A DNA stretch of 64,000 bases from Alphaproteobacteria bacterium (GTDB lineage Bacteria; Pseudomonadota; Alphaproteobacteria; Bin95): assembly GCA_964291285.2 (NCBI GenBank), contig OZ219787.1, positions 1,408,001-1,472,000 of the forward strand, given 5' to 3'. The notes under the pieces were generated by a model. The model was not told the origin of the DNA. It saw nothing but the letters and a program-made list of their open reading frames with translations, and searched no databases. Below are positions 15,635-36,674 of this stretch, one piece after another. The position numbers were made by a program, and so were the translations under genes. The number at the start of each line of letters is the position of its first letter. Within the stretch, counting starts at the first letter, position 1.

Positions 15635-15640
15635 GCCGTT

Positions 15641-16000: not shown

Positions 16001-16007
16001 CACGCCC

Positions 16008-19648: not shown

Positions 19649-19761
19649 TAGGTCCTGTGGACGGATTTGATCAAGATGAAGGCAGCGGCGAGTGCGACGA
19701 AGGAGCTGAAGTTTGTGGCGGTCTTTTCGCAGCGCAGGGCGATGCGTTTGAAGCGTTTGAT
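19648..19761 (-). pseudogene. 3' fragment of another IS5-family transposase
   Basis: IKRFKRIALRCEKTATNFSSFVALAAAFILIKSVHRT*. Confidence 0.8.
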
Positions 19762-20264: not shown

Positions 20265-20292
20265 GTGCGATATAGCATTTGCTATGTCGCAC
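20265..20292. promoter_or_regulatory. Palindromic operator upstream of defence operon
   Basis: GTGCGATATAGCA-TT-TGCTATGTCGCAC (12/13 arms), 54 bp before the ATG of the HTH-helicase. Confidence 0.6.
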
Positions 20293-20346
20293 GAGATGGT
20301 CTAATCCTTGCGCCCCATGTAATCGAGAAACGACGGGCGACCGGGA

Positions 20347-23300
20347 ATGGGCGACATTCCGGAAGACTATCCACTCCGGGTCAAGGACTTGCGTGGGCGG
20401 TTGGGGCTCACGCAGGCGCAGATGGCGGAGCGCGTCGGCGTGTCGTTCGCGACAGTGAACCGCTGGGAGAACAGCCAGTCCAGGCCCGGGCGCCTGGCGT
20501 GGCGCGGGATCGTCGATCTGGAAGCCGAGGTCCGGCACTTGACCCGGCCGGCCGAGCCGCCCGCCGCTTCGGCGACGCCAACACTCGACTTTGGCTCCGA
20601 GCCGGCAGCGGTGGCTGCCGTTGCGGCGGCGACGCGGCTCGCCTACGGCCACCTGTCCAACCCGGCTTTCGCCAGCGAGATATCCTCGATCGACCCGTTG
20701 CCGCACCAGCGTATCGCCGTCTACGAGCACATGATCGGCCAGTCGCCGCTGCGGTTTCTCCTTGCCGACGACGCCGGCGCCGGAAAGACGATCATGACGG
20801 GGCTGTATCTCCGCGAGATGCTCGTGCGACGGCTGGTGACCCGTGTGCTTGTGGCGGCGCCGGCCGGGCTGGTCGGCAACTGGGAACGCGAGATGCGCAC
20901 GCTGTTCCGCCTCCCCTTCCGCATCGTGCGCGGTCCCGACGCCCGCGCCGGGAACCCGTTCGTCGGGCCGGAGAGCGACCGCGTCGTCGTCAGCGTCGAC
21001 ACGCTTGCCGGCGAACGCATGTTCGGGCGCCTGCGCGAGGCGGTGGAAACGGGCGCCGCGCGGCCCTATGACCTCGTGGTGTTCGACGAGGCCCACAAGC
21101 TGGCCGCCGCCCGCGAGCAGGATTTCCGAGTCCGCAAGACCGGCCGCTACCGCCTCGCCGAGGCGCTGGCCGGCCTGCCCGCCAACTGCGCGCGCTGGCG
21201 ACTGGGCTGGTCGGCACCCAACATCCTGCTGCTGACCGCGACGCCGCACATGGGCAAGGACTTCCCCTACTACTGTCTGTGGCGCCTGCTCGCGCCGGAC
21301 GCGCTGGCGACCTTCGAGGCGTTCGCGGACTTCCCCGAAGCGCAGCGCCGCCGCCACTTCATCCGCCGCACAAAGGAAGAGATGGTTCACGCCGACGGCC
21401 GCCCCCTCTACCCGCAACGCAAGTGCGACACCCTCAGCTACGTGCTCGCCCCGGCCGAACAGGAGCTTTATGACGCGACCACGCAGTACATTGAGGAAAC
21501 CTGCAACAAGGCGCGCATTCTGAACCGTTCCGCGGCCCGTCTTGCGATGAGCGTGTTCCAGCGTCGGCTCGCCAGCTCGACCTATGCCGTGATGCGCTCG
21601 TTCGAGCGCCGCCTCGCCCGCCTGGACGAGGCCGTCGCGCTCGTCCGGGCGGGCCGCAGCGAGGAGCTGGAGCGGGGCCAGACCCGGCTCGGTAAGACAC
21701 CGGATTTCTTCGAATCCCGCACCGCCGACGAGGAGGCGGACGACAGCGGCGAACGGGAGCGCCACGAGGAATTCGAAGAGGCCGCGCTCGGCGGTTTCGC
21801 CGCGCTCACCCTGACGCAACTCCGGGAGGAGCGGGCGGAGGTCGAGGTCCTTCTGTTCCAGGCGCGCCGCCTCGCCGAAGCTGGCGAGGACTCCAAGTTC
21901 GAGAAGCTGCGCGCGGTCATGGGCGATCCGGCCTTCGCCCGGGAGAAGCTCATCGTCTTCACCGAGCACCGCGACACGGCGGCGTTTCTGGTGCGCCGCC
22001 TGGAAGGTCTCGGCTTCGCCGGGCGGGTCGCCCTGGTCCACGGCGGGCTGGACTACCGCGCGCGCGAGGCGCAGGTGGAACTGTTCCGGCGTCCGGCGGA
22101 GCGCGGCGGCGCCAGCTATCTGGTCGCGACCGATGCCGCCGGCGAGGGCATCAATCTCCAGTTCTGCTGGCTGATGGTGAATTACGACCTGCCCTGGAAC
22201 CCGGCGCGGCTGGAGCAGAGGATGGGGCGCATCCACCGCTACGGGCAGACGCGCGACCCGGTGGTGATCGTCAACCTGGTCGCCGGGGAGACGCGCGAAG
22301 GCCGGGTCCTCAAGGTGCTGCTCGACAAGCTCGAGGCGATCCGCAAGGAACTCCGCTCGGACAAGGTGTTCGATGTCGTCGGGCACCTGTTCGAGAATCT
22401 GCCGCTCAAGGACTATCTGGAGCAGGCGGTGACGGAGGCTGGCGCCCGCGCCGCTGTCGAGGCGTTCGAGGCCAATCTGACGCCGGAACGGGCGGTCGCC
22501 ATTGAAGCGCGGGAGCGTGGCCTCTACGGCAGCGGCGAGGTCCGCGCCCGCCTTCCCGAACTCAACGCGACCATGGAGCGGGAACAGTATCGCCGCCTGC
22601 TCCCCGGCCATGTCCGCCACTTCGTCGAGACCGCGGCCCCCTTGATCGACCTGCGGCTGGAGGGCGACGCGGGCGGCGTGTTCGACTTCGTGCCCCAACG
22701 CCCGCGCGCCGCCGACGATATGCGCGCCGCGATGGACGTCTACCCCGAAGCGATGCGGGGCCGGTTGACGTTCCAGCGTCCGGAATCTGGCGGCGACACC
22801 ATCTGGATGCATCCCGGCGAGCCGGTGTTCGAGTGCTTTCACGCCGCTCTGCTGGCGCGCCACGGCGGCGAGGCGCTGCGCGGCGCGATATTCGTCGATC
22901 CCCACGCCGAGGAACCCTACCTCTTTCACCTGGCCCGGGTCTCGGTGGTGCGGCGCGGCCGGAACCGGGTGGAGACGGTCGAGATACGCCCGGTCGGGCT
23001 GCGGCAGGAGAGCGACGGCGCCGTTTCGCCCTGCCCGCCGGAGCATCTGCTCTTGTTGCGCGGCATTGGCGGCGTCGCGCCCGGCAGCATACCGCTGGCC
23101 CGCGCGGCGCACAGGCTCACGGAGAACGCCAGGGCGTCGCTGAAGGAGACTGCACTGCGCATGGCGGCGAAACATCGCGTGCGCCTTGAGGAGGCGCTGC
23201 CGGAACGGCGCCGTTGGACCGCGCGCGGCTACGACTACAAGACCGCCGAATTGATGACGAGGCGCCGGAGCATGAGCGGGGAGGCCCGCCAGGGCGATTC

Positions 23301-23901
23301 GCAAGCGCAAGCGGAGCTCGCCATCGTGAAGGAAGAGCAGAACCGCCTGGTCGCGGAGCAGCGCTGCCATCTGGCGGCGCTGGAGGCGGAGCCTGCCTCG
23401 ATCGGGCCCGGCGAGGCAGCGATGATCGCCCATGCACTGGTCCTGCCGACCGGTGACCCGGAAGAGCGGCAGCGGCACGACGCCGAAGTCGAGGCGATCG
23501 CCATGGCCCATGCGCGCGCCCATGAGGAAGCGGCGGGGGCTTCGGTTCGAGACGTGTCGCGGCCCGCGCTGGCGCGGCGCGCCGGCTTGGGCGACTGGCC
23601 CGGCTTCGACCTTCGTTCGCTGCGCCCGGCCGGAGCGGGCGGGCCGGCCGAGGACCGCGCCATAGAGGTCAAGGGCCGCGCCGGATCGGGCGCGGTGGAA
23701 GTGAGCGAAAACGAATGGGCGGCGGCCTGCAACCTGCGCGAGCGCTACTGGCTCTATGTCGTCTTCGATTGCGCCGGGCCGCGCCCCCGCCTGGTCAGGG
23801 TGCGCGACCCCTTCGGCCGCCTGCTGGCCCGGACGAAAGGCGGCGTCGTCATCTCGGCGTCGGAAATCTTGTCGGCAAGCACGGACGAGAGGGTGGCGTA
23901 A
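20347..23901 (+). CDS. XRE-HTH + SNF2 helicase + DUF3883 nuclease fusion
   Basis: LTQAQMAERVGVSFATVNRWE; LADDAGAGKT, FDEAH, TATPH, EGINLQ, EQRMGRIHRYGQ; GFDLRS..AIEVKGR..YWLYVV. Confidence 0.9.
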   Translation: MGDIPEDYPLRVKDLRGRLGLTQAQMAERVGVSFATVNRWENSQSRPGRLAWRGIVDLEAEVRHLTRPAEPPAASATPTLDFGSEPAAVAAVAAATRLAYGHLSNPAFASEISSIDPLPHQRIAVYEHMIGQSPLRFLLADDAGAGKTIMTGLYLREMLVRRLVTRVLVAAPAGLVGNWEREMRTLFRLPFRIVRGPDARAGNPFVGPESDRVVVSVDTLAGERMFGRLREAVETGAARPYDLVVFDEAHKLAAAREQDFRVRKTGRYRLAEALAGLPANCARWRLGWSAPNILLLTATPHMGKDFPYYCLWRLLAPDALATFEAFADFPEAQRRRHFIRRTKEEMVHADGRPLYPQRKCDTLSYVLAPAEQELYDATTQYIEETCNKARILNRSAARLAMSVFQRRLASSTYAVMRSFERRLARLDEAVALVRAGRSEELERGQTRLGKTPDFFESRTADEEADDSGERERHEEFEEAALGGFAALTLTQLREERAEVEVLLFQARRLAEAGEDSKFEKLRAVMGDPAFAREKLIVFTEHRDTAAFLVRRLEGLGFAGRVALVHGGLDYRAREAQVELFRRPAERGGASYLVATDAAGEGINLQFCWLMVNYDLPWNPARLEQRMGRIHRYGQTRDPVVIVNLVAGETREGRVLKVLLDKLEAIRKELRSDKVFDVVGHLFENLPLKDYLEQAVTEAGARAAVEAFEANLTPERAVAIEARERGLYGSGEVRARLPELNATMEREQYRRLLPGHVRHFVETAAPLIDLRLEGDAGGVFDFVPQRPRAADDMRAAMDVYPEAMRGRLTFQRPESGGDTIWMHPGEPVFECFHAALLARHGGEALRGAIFVDPHAEEPYLFHLARVSVVRRGRNRVETVEIRPVGLRQESDGAVSPCPPEHLLLLRGIGGVAPGSIPLARAAHRLTENARASLKETALRMAAKHRVRLEEALPERRRWTARGYDYKTAELMTRRRSMSGEARQGDSQAQAELAIVKEEQNRLVAEQRCHLAALEAEPASIGPGEAAMIAHALVLPTGDPEERQRHDAEVEAIAMAHARAHEEAAGASVRDVSRPALARRAGLGDWPGFDLRSLRPAGAGGPAEDRAIEVKGRAGSGAVEVSENEWAAACNLRERYWLYVVFDCAGPRPRLVRVRDPFGRLLARTKGGVVISASEILSASTDERVA

Positions 23902-25835
23902 TGCCGTGGAATGACGATTTACACGGTGCCGCGCTTAACATTGCTGCGTCAGACGCATCACCCCTGCGTGTACGTGCAGGCCCTGGCACCGGCAAGACTT
24001 TTACGTTGATGCGCCGGATCGCGCGTTTCCTGGAGCAGGGAATCGAACCAGAGCGCATTCTTGTATGTACATTTACTCGGACAGCCGCGGCTGATCTGAA
24101 AGAAGCCGTCGTTGCGTTGAATGCGCCTGGAGCAGATAGTGTAAAAACGACTACCATCCATGGCCATTGTTTCGGAATCCTCATGCGAGATGATGTTTTG
24201 GCTTCGACCTCTCGGGTTCCTCGGCCGCTATTGGAGTTTGAGCGGCGCTTTCTCTTGGAGGATCTACCGGGAAACGCCTTCGGCACGATCCACGGCAAGC
24301 GGAAACGGCTCATGGCCTTTGAGGCGGCTTGGGCGAGACTCCAAGACGAGCAGCCAGGTTGGCCAAACGATGCAACGGATAAGGCTTTCCAAGCCGCGCT
24401 TCTTGATTGGTTGCGCTTTCATGGGGCAATGTTGATCGGCGAACTTGTACCGGAAGTCTTGCGTTATCTTCGGAACAACCCCGCGGCACGGGACTTTGAT
24501 CAGTTCACGGAGATTCTCGTTGACGAGTATCAAGACCTGAACGTCGCCGAGCAGGAGGTGATCGATCTACTTGCCATAGACGCGAAGTTGACAGTTATTG
24601 GTGACGAAGATCAATCGATCTATTCTTTCAAGTGCGCACACCCGGAAGGGATCGAGGAGTTTGACCTGAGAAATACCGGAACTGCAGACGAAACGTTGGA
24701 GGTATTTCGGCGGTGCCCAACCACAATTGTCGCACCGGCCAATGAATTAATCAGCAACAATAACGATAGAGTCAATCGATCTCTGTTGCCGCATGTGGAA
24801 AACGGCCAAGGGGAAGTCCATATCGTCCAATGGACAGATATCGAGGCGGAGGCGAACGGGTTAGCTCAATTCATCCGACAGCGTATCGTCGATGAACGAG
24901 TCCATCCCGGTCGGGTTCTCGTTCTCGCTCCACGCCGGGTGTTCGGCTATGCGGTTCGTGATGCCTTGACGGCGCTAGATGTGCCGGCCCACAGCTTCTT
25001 TCAGGAACAGGCGCTCGAAGGCGATCCAAAGAGCAGGGACGGTAGCAAGAAGCAGCAGGTATTTACCCTTTTGACGCTTGCGGCCGATCCAACTGACGCA
25101 GCAGCGCTTCGCTGCTGGTGCGGTTTCGGCAATCACTCTCTTCACGCCCCCGCTTGGGGACGGATTCGCGAATTGTGTCAGCAACCGGACCATTCCCTAA
25201 CGGATGTGCTTGAAGGCATTCGGGATGAGCGCATTTCGTTGTGTTATGGCAACTCTCTCCGCGACAGGCTTTCTGAACTTCGACAGCGGCTACAGGTTCT
25301 TGAGAATTTGGTTGGCCAAGCTTTTGTGGATGCATTGTTTCCAGCGGACGACTCCGACTTTGAGGAGCTTCGCGAACTGACTTCTAGTCTTCCTGAGGGT
25401 GCCGATGCCAAATCTCTCCTGGATATACTTCGCACACGCATCACCCAACCTGAATTGCCGACAGATGTCAATTATGTTCGCGTAATGAGTCTGCACAAAT
25501 CAAAGGGTCTGACCGCCGATCTCGTAATCGTGATGGGTTGTGTTGAAGGACTAACTTCACACGTTGGTGATTCGCTATCGGAGGCAGAGAAGAACAAGGA
25601 TCTCGAAGAACAACGGCGACTGTTCTATGTTGCCGTGACTCGTTCACGTGATACACTAATTCTGTCGAGCGTCACACACTTGCCTCGAAACTTGGCTTAT
25701 CAACTTAAAGTGCGTATAACCGGTCGAAAGAATGTTGTTCCGACCATTACCTCACGCTTCATCCACGAGCTGGGTCCTAGAAGACCGAATCCGGTCAAAG
25801 GCGCGCAACTGCTCGAAACAGGGATTGGCGTATGA
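23901..25835 (+). CDS. UvrD/Rep-family SF1 helicase
   Basis: AGPGTGKT, CTFTRTAA, VDEYQD, GDEDQSIYSF, MSLHKSKGL, RRLFYVAVTR; lower GC. Confidence 0.9.
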   Translation: MPWNDDLHGAALNIAASDASPLRVRAGPGTGKTFTLMRRIARFLEQGIEPERILVCTFTRTAAADLKEAVVALNAPGADSVKTTTIHGHCFGILMRDDVLASTSRVPRPLLEFERRFLLEDLPGNAFGTIHGKRKRLMAFEAAWARLQDEQPGWPNDATDKAFQAALLDWLRFHGAMLIGELVPEVLRYLRNNPAARDFDQFTEILVDEYQDLNVAEQEVIDLLAIDAKLTVIGDEDQSIYSFKCAHPEGIEEFDLRNTGTADETLEVFRRCPTTIVAPANELISNNNDRVNRSLLPHVENGQGEVHIVQWTDIEAEANGLAQFIRQRIVDERVHPGRVLVLAPRRVFGYAVRDALTALDVPAHSFFQEQALEGDPKSRDGSKKQQVFTLLTLAADPTDAAALRCWCGFGNHSLHAPAWGRIRELCQQPDHSLTDVLEGIRDERISLCYGNSLRDRLSELRQRLQVLENLVGQAFVDALFPADDSDFEELRELTSSLPEGADAKSLLDILRTRITQPELPTDVNYVRVMSLHKSKGLTADLVIVMGCVEGLTSHVGDSLSEAEKNKDLEEQRRLFYVAVTRSRDTLILSSVTHLPRNLAYQLKVRITGRKNVVPTITSRFIHELGPRRPNPVKGAQLLETGIGV

Positions 25836-25906
25836 CCGCGCGCCGCAAGATTCTGATCATCACCGGGCCGACCGGACCCGCACAGCCGCGCGGCGCCGCC
25901 CCATGA
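25832..25906 (+). pseudogene. 24-codon remnant, probably the start of a P-loop ATPase
   Basis: MTARRKILIITGPTG..., with ATGA overlaps to both neighbours. Confidence 0.4.
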
Positions 25907-28900
25907 CCGCCGAGCGCGACACCCGCCTGATCGAGGTGGATTTTCCGCTGGAGCGGGTCTCGATCGACTCCGTGCATGAGAAGAACGTCCGGCACGGGCA
26001 TATCTCGACCCTGCATATCTGGCCGGCGCGGCGACCCTTGGCGGCGTGCCGGGCGGCGCTGGTGGCGACGCTGCTGCCCGATCCCGGTGATGCGGCGGCA
26101 CGGCAGGCCCTCTACAGCCGGCTGGCGGGCGAGGTCATCGAGACGGTCAAGGCCGAACGCCGCGGCGGCCGCGCGTTGGATCAGCACCGACGCGAGACCT
26201 CAGGCGGCCTGCTGCACTGGGGGCGCGAGGACGGCCCGGACCTGCAATGGTTCCGCGAGCGCATCCGCCAGGCCCATGGCGGACGCGCGCCCAGGGTGCT
26301 GGACCCGTTCGCCGGCGGCGGCGCGATTCCGTTGGAGGCGATGCGGCTGGGCTGCGAGGCCACCGCCATCGACATCAACCCGGTCGCCTGGTTCATCCTG
26401 AAATGCACGCTCGACTATCCGTACCGCCTTGCTGGCGAGGCCCTCCCGCTGCCTGATTTTGCGCGCGCCGACAGCGACTTCATGGCGGCGTTCCTCAAGG
26501 CCAGGGGGTTCAAGGGCAAGGCCCTGGCCCGCCAACTTGCCGCGCTCGGCCTAGGCGAGGACGCTGGCGATGCGGAGCCGGGGCTGCTCGACGACGCCCC
26601 GGAAACCGGCGGCGATCTTCTCCAGGCCGACCTCGCCTGGCAGTTGCGCGCCTGGGGCCGATATGTGCTGGCCCGCGTCCGCGCGGCGCTGGCGGAGCGC
26701 TATCCCACCTATGCCGAATTCCAGGCGCTCGTGCCCGGCGGCAAGTCCTGTGAGGAACGGCCGCTCGCGCTGCTGGCGCCGGATGAAAGGGGCGAGACTG
26801 ACGCCGGGCCATTGAACGACAGGTTCGACGGGGCACATCTGGAGGACCCGCGCAACCCGCGCTGGGTGCCGAAACCGACAGTGGCGTATCTGTGGGCGCG
26901 CACGGTGCGCTGCAAGGGCTGCCGGGCGACATTGCCCCTGCTCAAGACGCGCTGGCTCTGCAAGAAGGACAACAAGCGTATCCTGCTCACGATGGCGTCG
27001 AACGCGGACGGCACCGGCGTCGATTTCGGCGTCGAGACCGACGTGCCACGGGCTGGCGGCAATGCGGCGCAGCAGCGCGAGCACGACAAACGGCTCGGCG
27101 CAGGCACGATGAGCCGCAGCGGTGCGCGCTGCCCTTGCTGCCCAACGATCATGACCATGGAGGATATCCGCCTCGAAGGCCGCGCCGGGCGGCTGGGCGC
27201 TATCATGACCGCCGTGGTCGTGGACGGGCCGAAGGGCAAGGAATACCGGCTGCCGCAAGACGAGGAACTGCGCGCCGCGGAAGTCTCCGCCGACGAACTG
27301 GAAGCGCTGTATGCCGACATTCCCTTCGGGCTGCCGATGGAGCTAACACCGCGCCAGGGGCGGGGCGCTGCCCGCGCCTTCTCGGTGGAGAATTACGGCC
27401 TCGACCGCTGGGGCAAGCTGTTCACCGACCGGCAGCTTCTGGCGCTGGGTTCGGTGCTGCGGGAGATGCGCCGGTGCGCCGACGCGATGGCGGACCTCCC
27501 GCCAGAATGGCGGGAGGCTATCCTGGCCTGTCTGGCCCCGTCGCTCGGCCGCCTCGCCGACCGGGGCAGCGCGCTTGCGACCTGGACCAACGACCCGGAG
27601 AAAATCCGCAGCACGTTCGCTCGTTTCGCGCTGCCCGTCGTCTGGGACTTCGCCGAATCCTGTCCGCTAGCCGACACCACCGGCGGCTTCGTCCAGGCCG
27701 TCGAGTGGATCGCCCGCGTCGTCGAACATCTGCAAGACGCGACAAACGGCGCGCCCAGCGTAACGGTGCTGCGGCAGTCGGCCCTCGCATCCGTTCCCGG
27801 CGGTTTCGACGCCATCGTCACGGACCCGCCCTATTACGACGCCATCCCCTATTCGGACCTGATGGATTTCTTCCATGTCTGGCTGCGCCGGGCGCTGCAT
27901 GGCGTCGTGCCGGACGCCGAACCGGCGTTCGCCGACCCTCTCGGCCCGAAATGGAATGCGGCCGGCAGCGACGGCGAACTGATCGACGACGCCAGCCGGT
28001 TCGGCGGCGACCGGGCGGCGTCCAAGCAGGCCTATGAAGACGGCATGGCCCGCGCCTTCCAGGCCTGCCACGAGGCGCTGAAGCCGGAGGGCCGGCTGGT
28101 CGTCGTCTTCGCGAACAAGTCCCCCGACGCCTGGGAGACCCTGGTCGCGGCGCTGATCCGCGCCGGGTTCGTCGTCACCGGCTCCTGGCCGATCCAGACC
28201 GAGATGCAGACCCGGCAGCGTTCGCTGTCCTCTGCCGCCCTCGCCTCCTCGGTCTGGCTCGTCTGCCGCAAGCGCCCGCCGGCCCGGCCGGGCTGGGACA
28301 GCGCGGTGCTGGCCGAGATGCGCGAGAACATCGTGCGGCGGCTGCGCGGCTTCTGGGATGCCGGCATCCGCGGGCCGGACTTCGTGTGGGCCGCGACGGG
28401 GCCGGCGCTCGAAGCCTTCTCCCGGCATCCGGCGGTGAAGAAGGCCGATGCGCCCGGCGAGACCATGGCGGTCTCCGAATTCCTGCGCGAGGTGCGCCGC
28501 ATGGTGGTCGATTTCGTCGTCGGCCGGGTGCTGACCGGCGACGGCGACCCCGAGGCGGTGCGCGGCCTCGATGATGTGACGACCTATTACCTGCTGCACC
28601 GCGGCGATTTCGGCCTGGGCGAGGCCCCCGCCGGGGCCTGCATCCTCTATGCGCTGTCCTGCAACCTGTCCGACCGCGACCTCTCCGACCGATTCGCCAT
28701 CCTGTCACGACCTGGCCGCGTCCAATCCGACGAATCAGATGACGACGGGACCGGCGAGGAAGACGAGGACGGCGGCGGCGCTGCGGGTGCCGGCGGCGGG
28801 GGCGGCAAGGCGAAGCTGCTGCCCTGGAACCGGCGCAAGGCCAGAGGGCTGGGACTCGAAGGTCCGGGCGGGCGCCCCGCGCCGCTGATCGACCGGGCGC

Positions 28901-29124
28901 ACCGGCTGATGCAGCTCTGGCGCGCGGGCGACGAGGCGAAGGTGAACGCCTATATCGACGACAGCGGCCTCGCGCGCCACGCCCTGTTCGCGCGGCTGCT
29001 GCAGGCGCTGATCGAACTGGCGCCAGCCGGCTCGGAGGAACGCGCGATCCTCGAATCCCTCTCCAACCACCTCGCCACCCGCGCCGGCCTCGCCGCCCCG
29101 CGCCAGGCAAGGCTGGAAGTCTAA
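25903..29124 (+). CDS. DUF1156 N6-adenine DNA methyltransferase with Zn ribbon
   Basis: LIEVDFP, LHIWPARRPLAACRA, DPFAGGG, CKGC..CPCC, TDPPYY. Confidence 0.9.
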   Translation: MTAERDTRLIEVDFPLERVSIDSVHEKNVRHGHISTLHIWPARRPLAACRAALVATLLPDPGDAAARQALYSRLAGEVIETVKAERRGGRALDQHRRETSGGLLHWGREDGPDLQWFRERIRQAHGGRAPRVLDPFAGGGAIPLEAMRLGCEATAIDINPVAWFILKCTLDYPYRLAGEALPLPDFARADSDFMAAFLKARGFKGKALARQLAALGLGEDAGDAEPGLLDDAPETGGDLLQADLAWQLRAWGRYVLARVRAALAERYPTYAEFQALVPGGKSCEERPLALLAPDERGETDAGPLNDRFDGAHLEDPRNPRWVPKPTVAYLWARTVRCKGCRATLPLLKTRWLCKKDNKRILLTMASNADGTGVDFGVETDVPRAGGNAAQQREHDKRLGAGTMSRSGARCPCCPTIMTMEDIRLEGRAGRLGAIMTAVVVDGPKGKEYRLPQDEELRAAEVSADELEALYADIPFGLPMELTPRQGRGAARAFSVENYGLDRWGKLFTDRQLLALGSVLREMRRCADAMADLPPEWREAILACLAPSLGRLADRGSALATWTNDPEKIRSTFARFALPVVWDFAESCPLADTTGGFVQAVEWIARVVEHLQDATNGAPSVTVLRQSALASVPGGFDAIVTDPPYYDAIPYSDLMDFFHVWLRRALHGVVPDAEPAFADPLGPKWNAAGSDGELIDDASRFGGDRAASKQAYEDGMARAFQACHEALKPEGRLVVVFANKSPDAWETLVAALIRAGFVVTGSWPIQTEMQTRQRSLSSAALASSVWLVCRKRPPARPGWDSAVLAEMRENIVRRLRGFWDAGIRGPDFVWAATGPALEAFSRHPAVKKADAPGETMAVSEFLREVRRMVVDFVVGRVLTGDGDPEAVRGLDDVTTYYLLHRGDFGLGEAPAGACILYALSCNLSDRDLSDRFAILSRPGRVQSDESDDDGTGEEDEDGGGAAGAGGGGGKAKLLPWNRRKARGLGLEGPGGRPAPLIDRAHRLMQLWRAGDEAKVNAYIDDSGLARHALFARLLQALIELAPAGSEERAILESLSNHLATRAGLAAPRQARLEV

Positions 29125-29125
29125 C

Positions 29126-31852
29126 ATGCGCACCAGCGGCGAGAGACAACGCAAGACGAAGGCGGCGACCAGTCCGACAATTGCAGGATCCGAGCCATTG
29201 GAAGCCGCCCGGCTGCTGCCGAACGGCGCGCGCTTCTACCGCTGCGCCCTGCAGGTCAATCCGTTCGCCTATCTCGAGCGCCACGGCAAATCGACCAACT
29301 TCCGTTCGGAGGCGGACTACAATGCGGCGATCGTCCGGGCTTGTTGCAAGGCCGGTATCGAAGTCGTGGCGGTCACCGACCACTACCGCGTCGAGACGTC
29401 CCGGGCGCTCTTGCGGGCCTGCCGCGAGGCCGGCCTTTTCGCGTTCACCGGCTTCGAGGCGGTTACGAAGGACGGCGTCCATTTCCTTTGCATTTTCGAC
29501 CCGGAGCAGGAAGCAAGGCTGGAAAGAGTGATCGGGGACTGCGGCGTCCACGATTCGAGCGCAGCTTCTCCCGTGGGAAGCCTCGACTCTCTTGAATTAC
29601 TGGCGAAGGCGCGTGAGTGGGGCGCGGTCGCCATCGCCGCGCATGTGGCTTCCAATGGCGGATTGCTGAAAACCCTCAGCGGGCAGCCCCGGATCAATGC
29701 CTGGACCTCGCCGGATCTGCTTGCCTGCGCGCTGCCGGGAGCGACCGTGAAGGCGCCGGATGGGATCCGACGAATCCTTGAGAACAAGGATCCCCAGCAC
29801 CGGCGCACCCGCGCGGTAGCGGTTGTCAACGCCTCGGATGTCAACGACCCGGCGGATCTGGAGAAAGACAGCGCATCCTGCTTCATCAAGATGTCGAAAG
29901 TCTCGGTCGAGGCATTCCGCCAGGCGTTCCTCGATTCGTGGTCGCGAATCCGGTTGCACAGCGACCCACCGTCTGAACCCCATGCCGAACTGGTCGCCGC
30001 AGCGTGGGAAGGCGGGTTTCTGGACGGCGTGTCCGTTCGCTTCAACGGCAATCTCAACACGTTGATCGGCGGCCGCGGCACCGGCAAGTCCACGGTGATC
30101 GAGAGCATACGCTACGCGCTCGGCCTCGACCCCCTGGGGGACGAGGCGCGCAAGATGCATGAAGAGACGGTCAGGCATGTCCTGAAACCGGGAACGAAGG
30201 TCTCGCTTCTGGTCCGCTCGCATCACCCGTCCGAAGCGCATTATGCAATCGAGCGCACCGTGCCCAATCCGCCGGTCGTCAGGGACGATGCGGGCAACCT
30301 GCTGGCCATGGCGCCGAGAGAGCTGATGCCGGGCGCGCAGGTGTTCGGCCAGCACGAAATCTCCGAACTGACAGGGAGCCCGGAAAGACTGACAAGCTTT
30401 ATCGAGCGCCGTGCGGGACGCGATGCATCGCTCTCGGCCCACAAGGCGGAAATGAGGTTGGTGCTCGAGAAATCGCGCCTGCGTATCGTGGAAACCTGGC
30501 GGGAAATCGAGGAATTGATGGCCCGGCTTGACGCCCTGCCCGGCCTGGAAGAGACACAGAAGCGCTTTCGCGAAGCGGGGCTGGAAGAGCGGTTCAGGGA
30601 GCGAAGCCTCCTCGTCAGGGAGGAGCGGCTGTTCTCGATTCTGGACGAACGGCTCGAACCCTTTCGGGCGTTGCTCAGGGCGTTGGGGGAGGATCTTCCC
30701 ATCGACGCCGCATTCGTTTCCGCCAGGGCGCTGGCCTCTCTGCCGAACGCGGATATCTTGCGCGAGACGGGCGATGTCCTGCAAACCCTGGGCGCACGGC
30801 TCGACGAGGCCCGCGCCGGGTTCGCCGCTGCCCTGACCGAGGCCGATGCGGCGATTACAGATATCCGGGAACGCTGGGACGAGCGGCGCGGCGCTATCGA
30901 AAGCGCGTATGAAAAACTGCTGCGCGATCACCAGAAATCCGGCATCGACGGCGCGGAATTCATCGAGCTGCGCAAGCAGCTCGAATATCTGCGCCCGCTG
31001 AAGGACCGGCTGGAACATCTCCGCAAGGATATGGAGATGCACGAAGCGCACCGCCGCGATCTGGTTTCGGAATGGGAGGATATCAAGGCACGGGAATATC
31101 GTGCGCTGGCGAAGGCGGCGAAGGAGATAAACGGCAAGCTCCGCCAGCAGGTCAAGGTCGAAGTCAGAATGGCGGGCGACCGCGAACCTCTGGAAAATCT
31201 GCTTCGGACGGTCGTCGGGGGAAACCTTGCGGCCGCGCTTGAGCGCCTGCACAAGTCCGACCCGTTATCGCTGCCCGGGCTTTCGCAATGCTGCCGGGAA
31301 GGCAAGGACTCCCTGATCTCGACTTACGACCTCCCGCCGGGCGCTGCGGAACGGATCGCCGACGCCGGCCGGGACCTGCACATGAAAATCGAGGAGCTCG
31401 AACTACCCGCGACAACCCATATCGAATTGAACACGGCTCCCAAGGGCGAACCGGAGGCATGGCGCCCGCTGGAAGCGCTCTCCAAGGGGCAGAAGGCGAC
31501 GGCGGTCCTGCTGCTTCTGCTGCTCGACGCCGAGGCGCCTCTGGTGATCGACCAGCCTGAAGACGATCTCGACAACAGGTTCATCACCGAGAGGATCGTT
31601 CCGATCGTGCGGCGCGAGAAGCGGCGGCGGCAGTTCGTTTTCTCGACGCATAACGCCAACATTCCCGTCCTCGGCGACGCCGAACTGATCCTCGGCCTCG
31701 CCGCGTCCGGCGAGGCCGGCGGCGGTCAAGCGAATATCGCGCCCGAGCATATGGGATCCATCGACTCGGAAGCTGTCCGTGAACTGGTCGAGGAGACGCT
31801 GGAAGGCGGCAGGAACGCCTTCGAGATGCGCCGCTCGAAATACGGGTTCTGA
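29126..31852 (+). CDS. PHP domain + ABC/SMC-like ATPase (Ppl/TrlF-like)
   Basis: AVTDHY, GFE, GVHFLCIF, IAAHV; GGRGTGKST, coiled coil, LSKGQK, IDQPEDDLD, STHNAN. Confidence 0.85.
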   Translation: MRTSGERQRKTKAATSPTIAGSEPLEAARLLPNGARFYRCALQVNPFAYLERHGKSTNFRSEADYNAAIVRACCKAGIEVVAVTDHYRVETSRALLRACREAGLFAFTGFEAVTKDGVHFLCIFDPEQEARLERVIGDCGVHDSSAASPVGSLDSLELLAKAREWGAVAIAAHVASNGGLLKTLSGQPRINAWTSPDLLACALPGATVKAPDGIRRILENKDPQHRRTRAVAVVNASDVNDPADLEKDSASCFIKMSKVSVEAFRQAFLDSWSRIRLHSDPPSEPHAELVAAAWEGGFLDGVSVRFNGNLNTLIGGRGTGKSTVIESIRYALGLDPLGDEARKMHEETVRHVLKPGTKVSLLVRSHHPSEAHYAIERTVPNPPVVRDDAGNLLAMAPRELMPGAQVFGQHEISELTGSPERLTSFIERRAGRDASLSAHKAEMRLVLEKSRLRIVETWREIEELMARLDALPGLEETQKRFREAGLEERFRERSLLVREERLFSILDERLEPFRALLRALGEDLPIDAAFVSARALASLPNADILRETGDVLQTLGARLDEARAGFAAALTEADAAITDIRERWDERRGAIESAYEKLLRDHQKSGIDGAEFIELRKQLEYLRPLKDRLEHLRKDMEMHEAHRRDLVSEWEDIKAREYRALAKAAKEINGKLRQQVKVEVRMAGDREPLENLLRTVVGGNLAAALERLHKSDPLSLPGLSQCCREGKDSLISTYDLPPGAAERIADAGRDLHMKIEELELPATTHIELNTAPKGEPEAWRPLEALSKGQKATAVLLLLLLDAEAPLVIDQPEDDLDNRFITERIVPIVRREKRRRQFVFSTHNANIPVLGDAELILGLAASGEAGGGQANIAPEHMGSIDSEAVRELVEETLEGGRNAFEMRRSKYGF

Positions 31853-31854
31853 GC

Positions 31855-33063
31855 ATGACGACACGGACAGAGCTTCTGGAGATCATTGCGAACGGCGAGA
31901 ATTCCGGCGTCGAGTTCAAGCGCGACGATGTACGAAACCACGATCTCGCCAGGGAACTGGTCGCATTCTCCAACCTCGAAGGCGGCATGGTCCTGCTCGG
32001 TGTGGACGATGACGGGTCCGTCGTCGGGCTGACGCGGGACCGTCTGGAGGAATGGGTGATGACTGCGTGCCGGGACAAGATCAGGCCGGGCATTATCCCG
32101 TTCTTCGAGACAGTCAGGGAGGTGCGCCCCGGCGCTGACGTGGCGATCGTGCGGGCGCCACGCGGTGTCGATGTGCACAGCCAGTGGCACAACAACAGAA
32201 ACGCCTATTTCATCCGGGTCGGTACGCAGAGCCGGGAGCCGACGCCCCAGGAATTGAGCCGGCTCTTCCAGCAGCGAGGCGCCTTCCGCGTCGACCTGCG
32301 GCCGGTGCACGGGGCGGCTGTCGGCGATCTGGACCGTCGTCGGCTCGAAGAGTATTTCAGGTCGATCCGTCAACAGGATGTCCCCGCTGACGACGACGAA
32401 ACGGGTTGGCGGACCTTGCTGGTCAACACGGAGATCATGGTCGAGGGCAGCGCGAGCCTTTCAGGCCTGCTGCTCTTCGGGACCGCGCCTAATCGCTTCC
32501 TGCCGCAGGCGGGCATCGATGCAGCGGCGTTTCCCGGATTGGAAAAGGACTACGCGGCACTTGAGCGGAAAACGCTGCGCGGCCCGATGACCCCCCTCAT
32601 GGACGGCAAGGGCAATCTTCTGGAAGCCGGCCTCGTCGAGCAGGCGCTGGCGTTCGTCGGGCGCAACACGCCGGTGGGCGGCGGCCTCAAGGACGGCGCG
32701 CGCCGCGCGCAGCGCCCGGCCTATCCGGATGAAGCGGTGCGCGAAGCTGTCGTGAACGCCCTGATCCACCGGGACTATCTCCTGGCGAATACGGATATCG
32801 AACTGGCAATATATCGAAACCGGCTGGAGATCGTCTCGCCCGGGAGGCTTCCCAACGGCATAACGACCGAACGCATGCGCGCCGGGACCAGAGCCGCCCG
32901 AAACCAGCTGTTGAAGGACGTGATGCGGGACTATGGCTATCTTGAGCATATGGGGATGGGAGTGCCGAGAAAGATCGTTCGCGGCATGAAGCAGCACAAC
33001 GGAACGGAACCCGATCTCGTCGAGGACGGCGAGCGGTTCGTCGTACGCCTCTTCGCCCGATAA
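31855..33063 (+). CDS. Schlafen/AlbA_2 + HATPase_c_4 protein
   Basis: GENSGVEFK, VAFSNLEGGMVLLGVDDDG; AVREAVVNALIHRDY, EIVSPG, ARNQLL. Confidence 0.85.
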   Translation: MTTRTELLEIIANGENSGVEFKRDDVRNHDLARELVAFSNLEGGMVLLGVDDDGSVVGLTRDRLEEWVMTACRDKIRPGIIPFFETVREVRPGADVAIVRAPRGVDVHSQWHNNRNAYFIRVGTQSREPTPQELSRLFQQRGAFRVDLRPVHGAAVGDLDRRRLEEYFRSIRQQDVPADDDETGWRTLLVNTEIMVEGSASLSGLLLFGTAPNRFLPQAGIDAAAFPGLEKDYAALERKTLRGPMTPLMDGKGNLLEAGLVEQALAFVGRNTPVGGGLKDGARRAQRPAYPDEAVREAVVNALIHRDYLLANTDIELAIYRNRLEIVSPGRLPNGITTERMRAGTRAARNQLLKDVMRDYGYLEHMGMGVPRKIVRGMKQHNGTEPDLVEDGERFVVRLFAR

Positions 33064-33283
33064 TGGGCACCACGATTTCATTGATGCCTGGAGGCGGCGA
33101 TCGCGGATTCCATTCGGCTGGAGCAGGCGCAGTCCCCGCAAGCCGAGCCTGCATCGGCCGGGAAGCCCTCGGAATTGCGCGATCCGTGCACAACGATCTG
33201 ACGGCCCGCCGGGCGCGCCGCAACGGCTCCGACGCGCTCGCCCGGCGCCTCGACGCCGCCTGAACCCATCGAGCGAGGACGAC

Positions 33284-36200
33284 ATGGCGCAAAGACCACC
33301 CCGGACGCCCTGGCATGAGGTCGTGACGCTGCGCGAGGATGTGCGCACGGGCGCGCTCTCGCTGGCCGACTTTGCCGCCGACCTTCACGATGTAGCGATG
33401 CAGAAGGGCGCGCGGCCGGTCTATGAGGATCCGGGCCGGTTCTTTGCGCTGACCTATCCGACCTTCCCGTTGCGGGAACTCGCGCGCGACGTGGCGCTGC
33501 GCCTCGCCGGCAGGAACACCAAAGCGATCCGCCAGCTCGAACTTACCTATGGCGGAGGCAAGACCCATACGCTGGTGACGCTCTACCATTTGGCGCACGA
33601 TCCGCAGTCGTTGCCGACGCTCCCGGCAGTCGAGCAGTTCCGCTCCCATGTCGGTGCACCCCTGCCGGCGGCGCGTGTCGCGGCGCTCTGCTTCGACAAG
33701 CTCGATGTGGAAAAAGGCATGGAGGTGCGCGGCCCCGGCAGCGGGCTGCGCTGGCTCAAGCATCCCTGGAGCGTGCTGGCGTTTCAGCTGGCGGGCGAGG
33801 AGGGCCTGCGCGCGCTTCATCCCGACGGCGCGAACGAGGAGCGGGAAACGGCGCCTGCCGAGCCGCTGCTCGCCGAGCTGCTGTCGCGGCCGCAGGCAAG
33901 CGGGCTCGCCACCCTGGTGCTGATCGACGAAGTGCTGATGTATGCCCGCGAGAAGGCGGCGATGGAGGAGGGCTGGCATGCGCGGCTGACCGACTTCTTC
34001 CAGTATCTGTGCCAGGCGGCGGTCAGGGTGGACCGCTGCGCCCTCGTCGCCTCGCTGCTCGCCTCCGATCCCGCGAAGAGCGACGCGCTCGGCAAGCAGC
34101 TGACCCGGCAGATTTTCGACATTTTCAACCGGCAGCGCGAAGAGGGGATCCAGCCGGTGCAGAAGGAGGATGTGGCCGAAGTGCTGCGCCGGCGCTTCTT
34201 CGAGTCCGGTTCGATCGCCGATCCCGACGCCTTCCGCCCCCATGTCACGGCGGCAGTCGCCAATATCGCCGGGGTCGACGAAACGGTCGGCAAGAACAGG
34301 GCAGGCGAGGAACAGCGTTTCCTCGACAGCTACCCCTTCCATCCAGGGCTGACCGATATTTTCTATGCCAAGTGGACCCAGCTGGACGGGTTCCAGCGTA
34401 CGCGCGGCATCCTGAGGACCTTCGCCATCGCGCTGCGCGACGCCGAGAAGTGGGACAGGGCGCCGCTGGTCGGCCCCAATGTCCTTTTGCCCGCACCCGG
34501 CGAAAACGCTCTCTCCGAGGCGGCGCGCGAGCTTGCCGGCACCGCCACGCGCGAGGTCACGGAGGGCGCCGGCAATGTGTGGAGCGCCGTGCTGGAGGGC
34601 GAGCTTGCGAAGGCGCGGGCCGTGCAGGACGATCACCCGGCGCTGAAGTTCCGCGAAATGGAGCAGGCGGTGTGCGCCGTGTTCCTGAGTTCGCAGCCTA
34701 TCGGCCAGAAGGCGCACACGCCGGAGTTGATGGCGCTTGTCGGCGCGGCAGGCCCGGACCGGATCGATGTCGAGAAGGGCCTGCGCCGCTGGACCGAACT
34801 CTCCTGGTTCCTCGACGAGGCGGAGTTCGCCGACGCCGCGACGCTGCCCCGGGCGTGGCGTCTCGGCAACAGGCCCAACCTCAGGCAGATGCATGACGAC
34901 GCCTGCGCCAACCGGGTCGCGGCGGAGCAGGTGGAACAGGCGCTGCTGGAGGAGGTGCGGCGGGCGAAGAGCCTCACCCAGGGTGCGGCGGCGGCAGGCG
35001 CAAGGGTGCACATGCTGCCGGAGCGGCCGCGCGACATCGGCGACGACGGAGAGTTCCATTTCGCCGTCCTGGGGCCGGACGCGGTTTCCGATTCGGGCCG
35101 GCCGAGCGCGCAAGCGCGGCGCTTCATCGACGAGACGACGGGGCCGGACCGGCCGCGAATCCGACGCAACGCCGTGGTTCTGGCGGTACCTTCGCGCGAC
35201 GGCCTGGACGCCGCCCGGGCAAGCATCCGCGAATATCTCGGCTGGGAGGAGGTGCGCCGCCAGCTCGACGGCCAGGGCGGCGATCCGGTACGTGAAGGGA
35301 TGCTCGCCGCCTCGACGGAGAAAGCGCGCAAGCGCATCCCCGGTGCGATCCGCCAAGCCTGGGCCATGGTCGTCGCCGTCAACGAGCACAACGACATCCA
35401 GGCGTTCAAGACAACCATCGGCGCGGAACCGCTGTTTGCGGTCGTCAAGGCGGACCGGCGGGCGCGCATCCAGGAGACCGCGATCAGCGCCGAAGCGATG
35501 CTGCCCGGCGGCCCCTACGATCTCTGGCGCGCCGACGAGGTATCGCGCCGCGTGAAGGATATTGCCGGCGCCTTCGCGGAGAATCCGAAACTGCCGAAGA
35601 TGCTCCGGCGAAGGGATATCCTCGGCACGATCGACCGGGGTGTGCGCGACGGCGTCTTCGTTGCGTCGCTGGTCAGGCCCGACGGATCGGTCAGAACCTG
35701 GTGGCGGACGCCGGTCGACGAGCAGGCCCGGTCGGATCCGGCATTGGAGCTGTTCCTGCCCGACAGGGCCACGCTGTCGGAACTCGACCCGCAGGCGCTG
35801 GCACCGGATGTGCTGCCGGAACTGTGGACTGGCGCCTCCGTCGCGGTGGCGGACCTCGCCGCCTACTTCGCCGGCGGGCGGATGGTAACTGTGCAGCGAG
35901 AGGGCTATGCGGAACCGGTCGGTATTCCGGCCTGTCCCCGCGCCGCCGTCGAAGCAGCCGTCGCGGAAGCCGTCCGCCAGGGTGTGCTGTGGCTTGTGAA
36001 CGGCCCCGCAAGCTTCCAGGACGAAACGCTGCCGCCCGGCATTCTGTCGGACGCCGCCGAACTGCGCGCGCCTTTGCCGCCGCTATCGGTGAACCGGTTG
36101 ACGAAGGATTCGGCGCCAGAGGCATGGAAAGACGGACAGGCCAGCGCCTTGGCCCTTTCCGCTGCGCTCTCGGTGCAGGCCGGCGCACCGCTGCCCTGGT

Positions 36201-36601
36201 CGATCCTGCGCCGGGCGATCAACGACGCGCTCGACGGACGGTGGCTCGCCCTGGCGCCCGAAAGCGGCGCCTGGCCGTGCCCGGCCGCAGGTGCGGCAAC
36301 CGTCATGCTGCGGGAACCCGAACCCGCCGGCTTCGAGGACGGCGGCAGCGAACCCGCGTCGGTTCGCAAGGGCCTGCACATCGGCTCTGCCGATCTTGCG
36401 CCCAACGAGTTGCAGGATCTGGTTGAAGCGCTGCCGGAAGTCATCACTGCCGCCGCTGGCGTCCCCTTGCGGTTCCATCTTCGCATGACGCTGGGGGACG
36501 GTGGCGAACTACACGCCGAAACGGCGGCATCCATCAACGATATCCTGAAAAGCGCCAACCCCGGCCTGCGCTTGAGCGGAGCCGAAAAGCCGAACGGGTG
36601 A
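33284..36601 (+). CDS. DUF499 AAA+ ATPase (BrxC/PglY-related)
   Basis: PWHEVVTLREDV..FAADL, TYGGGKTH, LVLIDE, VLRRRFF, YPFHP, FQRTRGILR. Confidence 0.88.
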   Translation: MAQRPPRTPWHEVVTLREDVRTGALSLADFAADLHDVAMQKGARPVYEDPGRFFALTYPTFPLRELARDVALRLAGRNTKAIRQLELTYGGGKTHTLVTLYHLAHDPQSLPTLPAVEQFRSHVGAPLPAARVAALCFDKLDVEKGMEVRGPGSGLRWLKHPWSVLAFQLAGEEGLRALHPDGANEERETAPAEPLLAELLSRPQASGLATLVLIDEVLMYAREKAAMEEGWHARLTDFFQYLCQAAVRVDRCALVASLLASDPAKSDALGKQLTRQIFDIFNRQREEGIQPVQKEDVAEVLRRRFFESGSIADPDAFRPHVTAAVANIAGVDETVGKNRAGEEQRFLDSYPFHPGLTDIFYAKWTQLDGFQRTRGILRTFAIALRDAEKWDRAPLVGPNVLLPAPGENALSEAARELAGTATREVTEGAGNVWSAVLEGELAKARAVQDDHPALKFREMEQAVCAVFLSSQPIGQKAHTPELMALVGAAGPDRIDVEKGLRRWTELSWFLDEAEFADAATLPRAWRLGNRPNLRQMHDDACANRVAAEQVEQALLEEVRRAKSLTQGAAAAGARVHMLPERPRDIGDDGEFHFAVLGPDAVSDSGRPSAQARRFIDETTGPDRPRIRRNAVVLAVPSRDGLDAARASIREYLGWEEVRRQLDGQGGDPVREGMLAASTEKARKRIPGAIRQAWAMVVAVNEHNDIQAFKTTIGAEPLFAVVKADRRARIQETAISAEAMLPGGPYDLWRADEVSRRVKDIAGAFAENPKLPKMLRRRDILGTIDRGVRDGVFVASLVRPDGSVRTWWRTPVDEQARSDPALELFLPDRATLSELDPQALAPDVLPELWTGASVAVADLAAYFAGGRMVTVQREGYAEPVGIPACPRAAVEAAVAEAVRQGVLWLVNGPASFQDETLPPGILSDAAELRAPLPPLSVNRLTKDSAPEAWKDGQASALALSAALSVQAGAPLPWSILRRAINDALDGRWLALAPESGAWPCPAAGAATVMLREPEPAGFEDGGSEPASVRKGLHIGSADLAPNELQDLVEALPEVITAAAGVPLRFHLRMTLGDGGELHAETAASINDILKSANPGLRLSGAEKPNG

Positions 36602-36674
36602 ACCGAACGCAATGCCTGCGCGCAGCAAAGCCGGGATTCCGATACGACACCGCCTGGTCGCCTTGCGCAGCAGA

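Follow-up and report, generated by a model that had tools for sequence, protein, structure and literature searches.

The 64,000-nucleotide (nt) stretch of DNA analysed here (the window; contig OZ219787.1, positions 1,408,001 to 1,472,000, of the alphaproteobacterial assembly GCA_964291285.2) carries between positions 20347 and 36601 a locus of six co-directional open reading frames (ORFs), all on the plus strand, whose limits were confirmed. With a probability of about 0.8, this locus is an ordinary Hma system, also called a Type-1 DUF499-centred BREX-related (BR) system, that has received two independent cargo insertions at the junctions where such systems habitually carry cargo. The core is formed by hmaA, hmaB and hmaC. 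The first cargo, a gene for a UvrD/PcrA-family helicase of superfamily 1 (SF1), is located between hmaA and hmaB (the A-B junction). The second, located between hmaB and hmaC (the B-C junction), is a pair of genes coding for a TrlF-family PHP-ABC ATPase and for a TrlG-like protein in which a Schlafen domain is fused to a histidine-kinase-like ATPase domain. Read from its sequence, the locus consists of a system of three genes to which two cargo units were added independently, and not of the single six-gene system that the original prediction, made from the letters and their translations, had proposed.

The three core proteins are recognized by the PADLOC profiles of the Hma system. HmaA matches its profile at 5.6e-154, with 1070 of the 1176 profile positions covered, and its Pfam domains are an Xre-type helix-turn-helix (HTH_3), SNF2-rel_dom, Helicase_C and a C-terminal NOV_C / PD-(D/E)xK nuclease. 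The motifs AGAGKT at residue 144, DEAH at 247 and D...EVK near 1093-1115 are present. The helix-turn-helix (HTH) comprises residues 12-47 (window 20380-20487) and is common to most of 80 relatives; at least 7 of these 80 align from residue 80 only and seem to be devoid of it. HmaB matches PADLOC HmaB at 3.7e-112 and Pfam DUF1156 at 6.4e-18, and its motif I (FAGGG, 136-140) and motif IV (DPPY, 641-644) are invariant in 15 homologues. HmaC matches Pfam DUF499 at 1.7e-15 and PADLOC HmaC at 1.4e-71 (residues 8-705 against profile positions 4-683); it contains GGGKT at 92 and LVLIDE at 211, without an N-terminal HEPN extension. Its score against the NCBIfam DUF499_antiphage equivalog is low (80.7 bits, the cut-off being 1200); this equivalog was derived from a different branch, and the PADLOC profile of HmaC is the one that fits.

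The name Hma was given in Payne et al. 2021, and the system was reclassified as a 'Type-1 DUF499-centred BREX-related (BR) system' in NAR 2026 (PMC12839542); the latter text describes an N-terminal TUDOR domain and, in the part available, does not mention an HTH. As far as sequence can tell, the core of the window locus has all the defining features of this class and belongs to it. The SNF2 protein with its C-terminal PD-(D/E)xK nuclease, the DUF1156 protein and the DUF499 protein are found in the same order, DUF3780, which marks Type-2, and PglZ, which marks Type-3 BR and BREX, are missing in both cases, and co-oriented genes are embedded between the hma genes. No family-defining feature differs, and what is particular here is the cargo set, UvrD plus TrlF-TrlG. 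The locus is not BREX proper, since PglZ is absent from the genome and the ATPase is of the DUF499 type, with no BrxC (DUF6079-type). The profile search for PglZ gave no match in the whole 6.1-Mb genome while its control rang; the search for DUF3780 gave none in the whole genome either, a weaker blank because its control was silent in every control genome. The original prediction had already recognized a restriction-like, BREX-related DUF499/DUF1156/SNF2-nuclease core without DUF3780 or PglZ, accompanied by extra genes of defence type, and all of this is borne out, with the reservation just given for DUF3780.

That the three extra genes represent two separate insertions follows from the agreement of base composition, a locus of the same genus, a survey of 80 related loci and the content of their gaps. 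With respect to composition, the core genes have a GC content of 69-70% and a third-position GC (GC3) of 0.83-0.87, the UvrD gene 53% and 0.53, and trlF and the Schlafen gene 64% and 0.78-0.79. Core GC exceeds cargo GC likewise in survey loci L024 and L030 and in G014, a genome of the same genus. The latter possesses orthologues of hmaA, hmaB and hmaC at 76-83% amino acid (aa) identity but its cargo is different: a gene with DUF2806 lies between hmaA and hmaB, and one for an AAA_21 ABC ATPase between hmaB and hmaC.

The survey comprised 80 loci from many phyla, anchored on HmaB relatives of 52-88% identity; because the partner gene was unavailable or hmaB was cut, 4 loci were dropped from the gap counts for A-B and 12 from those for B-C. 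The order A-B-C is kept in all 80. At the A-B junction, 67 of 76 loci have a gap longer than 400 nt, as do 56 of 68 at the B-C junction; of 66 loci, both junctions are filled in 50 and both are empty in 2. Counting ORFs from 90 aa upwards, the gaps contain 330, of which 274 have the orientation of the operon, and these 330 form 147 clusters; the Pfam scan covered 34 of the 80 cluster representatives listed. An AAA_21 ABC ATPase is the cargo met most often (46 loci, mainly at B-C), and its partner is a 191-aa protein that belongs to no family (28 loci). DUF2806 comes next with 14 loci, then a Zeta-toxin-like kinase with 11. Other families are AbiJ_NTD4, OLD-TOPRIM ATPases, TIR, SIR2, GmrSD, SMODS and HATPase_c_3. 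No other type of cargo is as common in Hma and BR loci as a pair made up of an ABC ATPase and a growth-arresting nuclease.

Embedding of this kind is in print. Payne et al. 2024 found embedded genes in 931 of 1,485 Hma systems; these represent 376 cassette types and are co-oriented in 96.7% of cases. In Liu et al. 2024, 66.5% of the hma systems had insertions, and those of Halomonas included Septu, PARIS and Ppl. In NAR 2026 (PMC12839542), genes combining Schlafen, histidine kinase and winged helix-turn-helix (wHTH) domains are described beside BREX and BR loci in at least 1,017 taxa, ABC ATPases are paired with other nucleases, and a layered model of backup effectors is put forward. The original prediction was thus right about the kind of system but not about its novelty: it had taken the combination for undescribed, and the inserted genes vary among homologues within a catalogued architecture, findings that it had itself named as counting against it. 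What goes beyond these reports is modest. The pair formed by a PHP-ABC ATPase and a Schlafen protein is not named in the available text of NAR 2026 (PMC12839542), although its supplements may show it, and a full-text literature search combining Schlafen, PHP and ABC ATPase(s) found no paper.

In five of the 80 loci, the start of hmaB (its first ~35-41 codons) recurs within the A-B cargo, at a distance of 2-6 kb on the 5' side of the genuine gene (Table 1), and in one of them (L088) this fragment is followed by a piece of the hmaA 3' end (L088:4049-4352). These fragments look like scars of cassette stacking or exchange via recombination in the conserved gene ends.

The helicase of the A-B junction possesses GTGKT at residue 29, DEYQ at 205 and every other SF1 motif that was checked. 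Neither a nuclease domain in the protein nor a GajA-like (TOPRIM/OLD) gene in the operon was detected with Pfam and PADLOC. The helicase matches the GajB profiles of PADLOC (1.2e-46, partial), as expected of a Gabija helicase; however, it differs from Gabija in that a GajA-like gene is missing and in its location directly between hmaA and hmaB. In three survey loci (L033, L036 and L038) a distant UvrD-like gene (27-29% identity) lies at the same junction directly 3' of a GajA-like gene, and these pairs are, to judge by their gene content, embedded Gabija; L091 contains another distant UvrD-like gene. Close relatives were absent from the 400 other genomes of the phylum sample at E<=1e-60. In metagenomes, 2,862 homologues were found at E<=1e-30 among 8,000 scored candidates, the best 120 being 53-77% identical, and another metagenome scan with the UvrD protein gave just 2 distant relatives (28-29% identity).

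It has to be considered whether this helicase is an accessory subunit of the Hma machine, acting as a second motor with HmaA, instead of free cargo. L024 carries a 74%-identical gene at the same junction, with a stop/start overlap and an MPWN start, both as in the window gene. In two database proteins (P0230 and P0233) an HmaA-type C-terminus including the nuclease domain (NOV_C) is joined to a UvrD of this subfamily, and in a third (P0241) a distant UvrD is joined to a DUF1156 methylase domain. Three UvrD homologues also share their 'longest contig' figures with HmaB homologues (78908, 3261019 and 12448), and no GajA-like partner adjoins the window gene. Considering the UvrD/HmaA fusions and L024, the helicase may therefore work with HmaA. 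However, L024 is the only one of the 80 Hma loci with a close homologue, and three more are the Gabija cases. The composition of the gene (53.3% GC and GC3 0.53, versus 70% and 0.87 in the flanking genes) marks a recent arrival, and the fused proteins may have arisen from frameshifts or faulty gene calls on short contigs, although the same adjacency exists elsewhere whether they are real fusions or artefacts. We consider an accessory role somewhat unlikely.

Contigs of some public sequencing runs of the same organism touch both insertions. One contig in each of the runs X1 and X2 joins 23890 to 25917, skipping the helicase gene, a point that speaks against an accessory subunit, and contigs of runs X1-X3 join 33057 to 33299, skipping the 220-nt spacer that precedes hmaC. 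These joints hint at the existence of alleles in which the cargo is different or missing; they are no proof of an allele devoid of UvrD because the sides of the joints are short (37 nt) and intervening letters are possible.

The locus belongs to a longer unit (19648-36644) that is present several times in the genome: twice complete, twice truncated at contig ends and twice as a 1.78-kb fragment of the 5' part (Table 1). All six begin at one and the same base, with differing left flanks. This base is the start of a 113-nt remnant that recurs in about 20 further genomic places at 90-100% identity (most at 98-100%); read on the minus strand, 19648-19800 terminates with a stop codon, which is what one expects of the 3' part of a gene, and we take the remnant to be the end of an IS5-family transposase gene. 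An inverted repeat of the left end was not found at the right end, where the best match scored 6 against a random mean of 6.3. The two full copies differ at 66 positions, clustered in hmaA codons 185-386 and in hmaC, and between 21.6 and 34 kb they are identical except for one base; the six ORFs are intact in both. Diversifying selection between the full copies is not indicated by the substitutions in HmaA (21 synonymous, 15 non-synonymous) and HmaC (16 and 5), and the pattern of differences looks like patchy recombination.

These copies are relevant to the possibility that the cargo genes are mere passengers in a 'genomic sink', a hypothesis discussed by Payne et al. 2024, without any cooperation with Hma, the multiplication of the unit being a by-product of the activity of insertion sequences (IS) and some copies perhaps being silent. 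The genome is extremely IS-rich, the unit starts with the remnant of an IS end, and truncated fragments are present. Against this stand the six intact ORFs in both full copies with near identity over the stretch from 21.6 to 34 kb, the translational coupling at the junctions, and the presence of the same cassettes at the same junctions in distant hosts (L024 and L030). This explanation is rather doubtful.

TrlF scores 466.6 bits against the NCBIfam family NF045780, whose cut-off is 350 (residues 33-907 versus profile positions 1-944). Its ABC motifs are intact (Walker A at 315-322, signature at 785, Walker B at 806). The first 300 residues yield a predicted fold with a pLDDT of 85.6 that matches PHP phosphoesterases, EndoQ, RNase AM and the PHP domain of Pol III alpha (E 8e-08 to 1e-03, TM 0.41-0.56), and the label of PHP-ABC ATPase in the original prediction is correct for this reason. 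A sequence search of the PDB with TrlF gave weak SMC/ABC matches only. In an alignment of 35 family members, the PHP ligands D-x-H-x-H, TDH, E, H, H and D-x-H are kept by most; in the window protein, as in its five nearest relatives, QxN takes the place of HxH and DxN that of DxH. This clade retains H86, E111, H119, H173 and D238 and has lost three of the metal-ligand histidines. No result points to the nucleotide-depleting effector suggested in the original prediction; PHP is a phosphoesterase/nuclease fold and is degenerate here. Ppl, a single-gene defence system reportedly described by Gao et al. in 2020, shares with TrlF an N-terminal PHP fold fused to an ABC ATPase, and PADLOC Ppl matches the C-terminal part of TrlF at 5.6e-38. 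However, the window protein belongs to the TrlF family, has a Schlafen partner and reaches 160.2 bits against the Ppl equivalog NF042955, for which the cut-off is 1000.

The partner protein matches Pfam SLFN_AlbA_2 (1.2e-16) and HATPase_c_4 (3.6e-21). The Schlafen motif E15-x4-E20-x-K22 is present, E15 and K22 being at least 90% conserved in 17 homologues, and the N-box of the HATPase_c_4 domain (E297, N301, H305, R306 and D307) is invariant in the same number. A complex prediction for TrlF 300-908 and residues 1-390 of this protein, run without controls, scored 0.00, a value that speaks neither for nor against an interaction.

The two genes form what appears, from their distribution, to be a widely conserved mobile pair that moves as a unit. 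The TrlF family is above its cut-off in 33 of the 401 genomes of the phylum sample, and a Schlafen-HATPase_c_4 gene lies directly 3' of trlF in 18 of 30 listed loci of this sample; the four downstream partners that were scanned all carry both domains. Conversely, a TrlF C-terminus lies directly 5' of 22 of the 30 best Schlafen matches (the window itself being one of the 30), a count that leans towards linkage because the query was built from linked pairs. TrlF-TrlG occurs without Hma once in genome G001 and twice in G013, where the pairs adjoin an integrase and a TrwC relaxase. In L030 the pair lies between hmaB and hmaC with the same 2-nt spacer as in the window, and in L034 it lies upstream of hmaA. 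A Schlafen-HATPase_c_4 paralogue was also observed elsewhere in the window genome (G000:C3:95982-97187, minus strand; 380 bits to the family model).

The same pair is known from Photorhabdus laumondii, where Hapeshi et al. 2020 (PMC7554251) described the 'temperature restriction locus' (TRL), consisting of trlR, trlF and trlG. There, trlF is annotated as a histidinol phosphatase and trlG codes for AlbA_2 plus HATPase_c_4, and growth at 36 °C becomes possible when trlG bears a point or stop mutation or when the operon is deleted. In both loci a TrlF-family ATPase is directly followed by the AlbA_2 plus HATPase_c_4 protein, whose domain positions match those given for TrlG (compared by description). 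However, the window lacks a small trlR-like regulator upstream, since trlF begins 1 nt past the hmaB stop; the Photorhabdus pair is located between polA and dsbA and not inside Hma; and three PHP histidines are replaced in the window clade. The words 'phage', 'Schlafen' and 'abortive' do not occur in the main text of PMC7554251.

Among prokaryotic Schlafens, the HisKinase class is the commonest (34% + 19%) according to the preprint of Taboada et al. 2025, in which Ex4(E/D)xK is given as the Schlafen catalytic motif. The window protein shares with this class an AlbA_2/Schlafen domain with that motif fused to a histidine-kinase-like ATPase. It differs in its conserved ATPase partner, of which the main text of Taboada et al. 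2025 makes no mention ('ATPase' and 'operon' have no occurrences there). For a published Schlafen-Ig protein, tRNA cleavage upon sensing of a phage protein has been described. The likeness to PARIS (AriA ABC ATPase plus AriB nuclease) would lie in the combination of an ABC ATPase with a putative growth-arresting nuclease effector, while the effector here has a Schlafen fold instead of TOPRIM and the ATPase carries a PHP domain.

Instead of being an RNase effector, the AlbA_2-HATPase_c_4 protein could bind DNA and regulate transcription of the operon. Such proteins have long been annotated as transcriptional regulators, the architecture is given a C-terminal wHTH in NAR 2026 (PMC12839542), and Photorhabdus trlG appears as 'recG' in automated annotation (PMC7554251). 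Against this, the protein has the Ex4ExK motif that is catalytic in Schlafen RNases, it travels with TrlF and not with any single operon, and loss of trlG relieves growth arrest, which fits a toxic effector. A regulator is therefore improbable. Least probable of all is one integrated and undescribed layered system of six interdependent proteins, which the tight junctions (0-2 nt), the common orientation and the copying of the 17-kb unit as a whole with six intact ORFs in both full copies would favour, but which is contradicted by the three composition classes, by the different cargo in G014 and across the 80 loci, by the occurrence of TrlF-TrlG without Hma and by an architecture already in print.

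Under the preferred reading of an Hma system with two cargo units, the following mechanism can be proposed. HmaB would mark host DNA by N6-adenine methylation, and HmaC, an ATPase of the ORC/STAND-like type, would sense invader DNA or load on it. The SNF2 motor of HmaA would then translocate, and its C-terminal PD-(D/E)xK domain would nick or cut unmarked DNA, the last step being known from the Halomonas homologue. The helicase, translationally coupled to hmaA, would act as a further independent unit or as a second motor for HmaA. TrlF, with its degenerate PHP domain, would be a sensor or restrainer of TrlG, and the latter, a putative Schlafen-type RNase fused to a histidine-kinase-like ATPase, would be a growth-arresting effector similar to that of PARIS. 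Both proteins would constitute a semi-autonomous sensor-effector pair that halts growth via RNA cleavage. The model of a growth-arresting effector is consistent with the published observation that loss of trlG function frees Photorhabdus growth at 36 °C.

Several points weigh against this interpretation. In Halomonas, HmaA alone lowers T4 about 100-fold and requires helicase motif VI (Liu et al. 2024), and the nickase activity of its nuclease domain is essential; however, the same authors found no methylase-type protection by HmaB, and the restriction-modification logic of the Hma core remains a model. The location of the UvrD gene at the 3' end of hmaA, together with the fusions, may indicate that the helicase belongs to the core machine and is not free cargo. 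With respect to the second cargo, no trlF mutants were recovered among the heat-tolerant clones of Photorhabdus and TrlF was not assigned a role by the authors (PMC7554251), and only 2 of the 7 Schlafens tested by Taboada et al. 2025 defended. The roles given to the window proteins are predictions, drawn from motifs and from analogy with homologues, and their co-transcription is something that we infer.

A more far-reaching view, which we hold tentatively and consider less probable than its negation, is that the TRL pair is a widespread mobile abortive-infection module of PARIS type, in which TrlF, as a PHP pseudo-enzyme, would restrain a tRNase, TrlG, or sense on its behalf, and that the UvrD subfamily may be a dedicated second Hma motor. 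If this were true, the heat-induced arrest of Photorhabdus would be an off-target firing of a phage-defence effector, which would explain the recovery of trlG mutants but never of trlF mutants, and Schlafens of the histidine-kinase type may need their upstream ATPase when they are assayed. The locus links three bodies of literature that, in the text covered, do not cite one another, namely those on the TRL operon, on prokaryotic Schlafens and on embedding in Hma and BR systems. If the link holds, a growth phenotype that genetics can already address would provide an assay of a defence module based on a Schlafen; if it does not, the locus is an ordinary one. Embedding in Hma, the presence of Ppl in Hma and Schlafen-kinase genes beside BR systems were already known. 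The new elements are the mobile TrlF-TrlG pair, the three lost PHP histidines, the helicase fusions and the multi-copy unit. In any case, the window provides a clean natural case of two stacked cargo insertions, with G014 and its other cargo as an internal control.

The coordinates of the genes and of the repeated unit are collected in Table 1. The layout given in the original prediction, with gaps of 2 nt or less, a mini-ORF at one junction and 220 nt before the DUF499 gene, was found again in the sequence, and the third-position GC of the six ORFs is of coding type (GC3 0.53-0.87). The hmaA and UvrD genes overlap by 1 nt (TAATG). At the next junction, the 24-codon ORF starts on the UvrD stop and stops on the hmaB start, both as ATGA. 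The spacers between hmaB and trlF and between trlF and the Schlafen gene measure 1 and 2 nt, and 220 nt separate the Schlafen gene from hmaC. Judging by their co-orientation and coupled junctions, the six genes constitute a putative operon. The promoter and terminator scans were not above chance (6 terminator-like sites, 12.4 being expected by chance), and no tRNA was found within the 64-kb window.

The start of hmaB was placed at 25903 because homologues are ~1070 aa long and their M1 is invariant, and a longer ORF from 25732 was rejected on the same grounds. The 24-codon ORF was rejected as a gene, having no protein-level match in any related locus (tblastn), and is probably just a coupling device or an insertion scar. 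Another candidate, a 66-codon ORF at 33063-33263, was discarded as well, with no Pfam match and two marginal tblastn matches (E 0.001). The segment 33227-33283 matches L018 (95%), L011, L024 and L020 just 5' of their hmaC, and therefore the insertion ends there and the own leader of hmaC begins. Upstream of hmaA (19761-20346), only 20216-20335 is kept in the closest relative, L018, where it lies directly 5' of hmaA (83% identity over 120 nt, blastn); the ORF 19818-20159 is without a match both in Pfam and, by tblastn, in related loci.

Table 1. Features of the six-gene locus, of the repeated unit that contains it and of hmaB-start copies in related loci. Plain numbers are window positions; G000 is the genome of the window and L numbers are survey loci.
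Feature	Coordinates	Strand	Size	Basis or remark
hmaA	20347-23901	+	1184 aa	HTH_3 + SNF2 + Helicase_C + NOV_C (Pfam)
UvrD/PcrA-family SF1 helicase gene (cargo 1)	23901-25835	+	644 aa	Pfam UvrD-helicase 1.6e-38
Bridging ORF	25832-25906	+	24 codons	ATGA overlap at either end
hmaB, putative DUF1156 N6-adenine DNA methyltransferase	25903-29124	+	1073 aa	Pfam and PADLOC
trlF-family PHP-ABC ATPase gene (cargo 2a)	29126-31852	+	908 aa	NCBIfam NF045780
TrlG-like SLFN_AlbA_2 + HATPase_c_4 gene (cargo 2b)	31855-33063	+	402 aa	Pfam
Spacer	33064-33283	+	220 nt	last ~57 nt are the conserved hmaC leader
hmaC, DUF499 AAA+ (ORC/STAND-like) ATPase	33284-36601	+	1105 aa	Pfam and PADLOC
Left boundary of unit, terminal remnant of high-copy element	19648-19760	-	113 nt	exact unit start
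Right end of unit	36602-36644	.		homology to the C4 copy stops at 36641-36644, flanks differ beyond
Second full copy	G000:C4:653151-670146			99.6% identical
Copies cut by contig ends	G000:C3:2199427-2209665; C4:784576-796972
5' fragments	G000:C4:9027-10808; C5:358140-359922		1.78 kb
Extra hmaB-start copies	L024:7839-7940; L043:6515-6619; L047:492-617; L065:7993-8094; L088:3890-4012

Other mobile sequences and defence-like genes surround the repeated unit in the window. To its left, two tandem tyrosine-recombinase genes (15933-17144 and 17141-18490, within 15799-18632) recur in about 10 other genomic places at 95-98% identity, and this pair looks like an independent mobile element. Beside it, a gene on the minus strand (11879-15283) codes for an N6-methylase of 1134 aa with a Type ISP C-terminal specificity domain; in the domain scan of the window, no helicase or nuclease part was seen for it. 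The 5' ~2.2 kb of the methylase gene and the recombinase pair (13037-18633) have a 92%-identical stretch on contig 5. To the right, a transposase gene (42271-44076, minus strand) combines DDE_Tnp_1 with an N-terminal match to the Druantia DruA domain (2.1e-19), and this element is present in about 10 copies of more than 99% identity. Just outside the repeated unit, a gene on the minus strand (36992-38098) codes for an Xre-type HTH and an M78 peptidase (ImmA/IrrE-like). No comparable match (>60 bits) to it was found among the matches listed in the 80 other loci; in G014, a distant homologue (27% identity) occupies the same place after hmaC.

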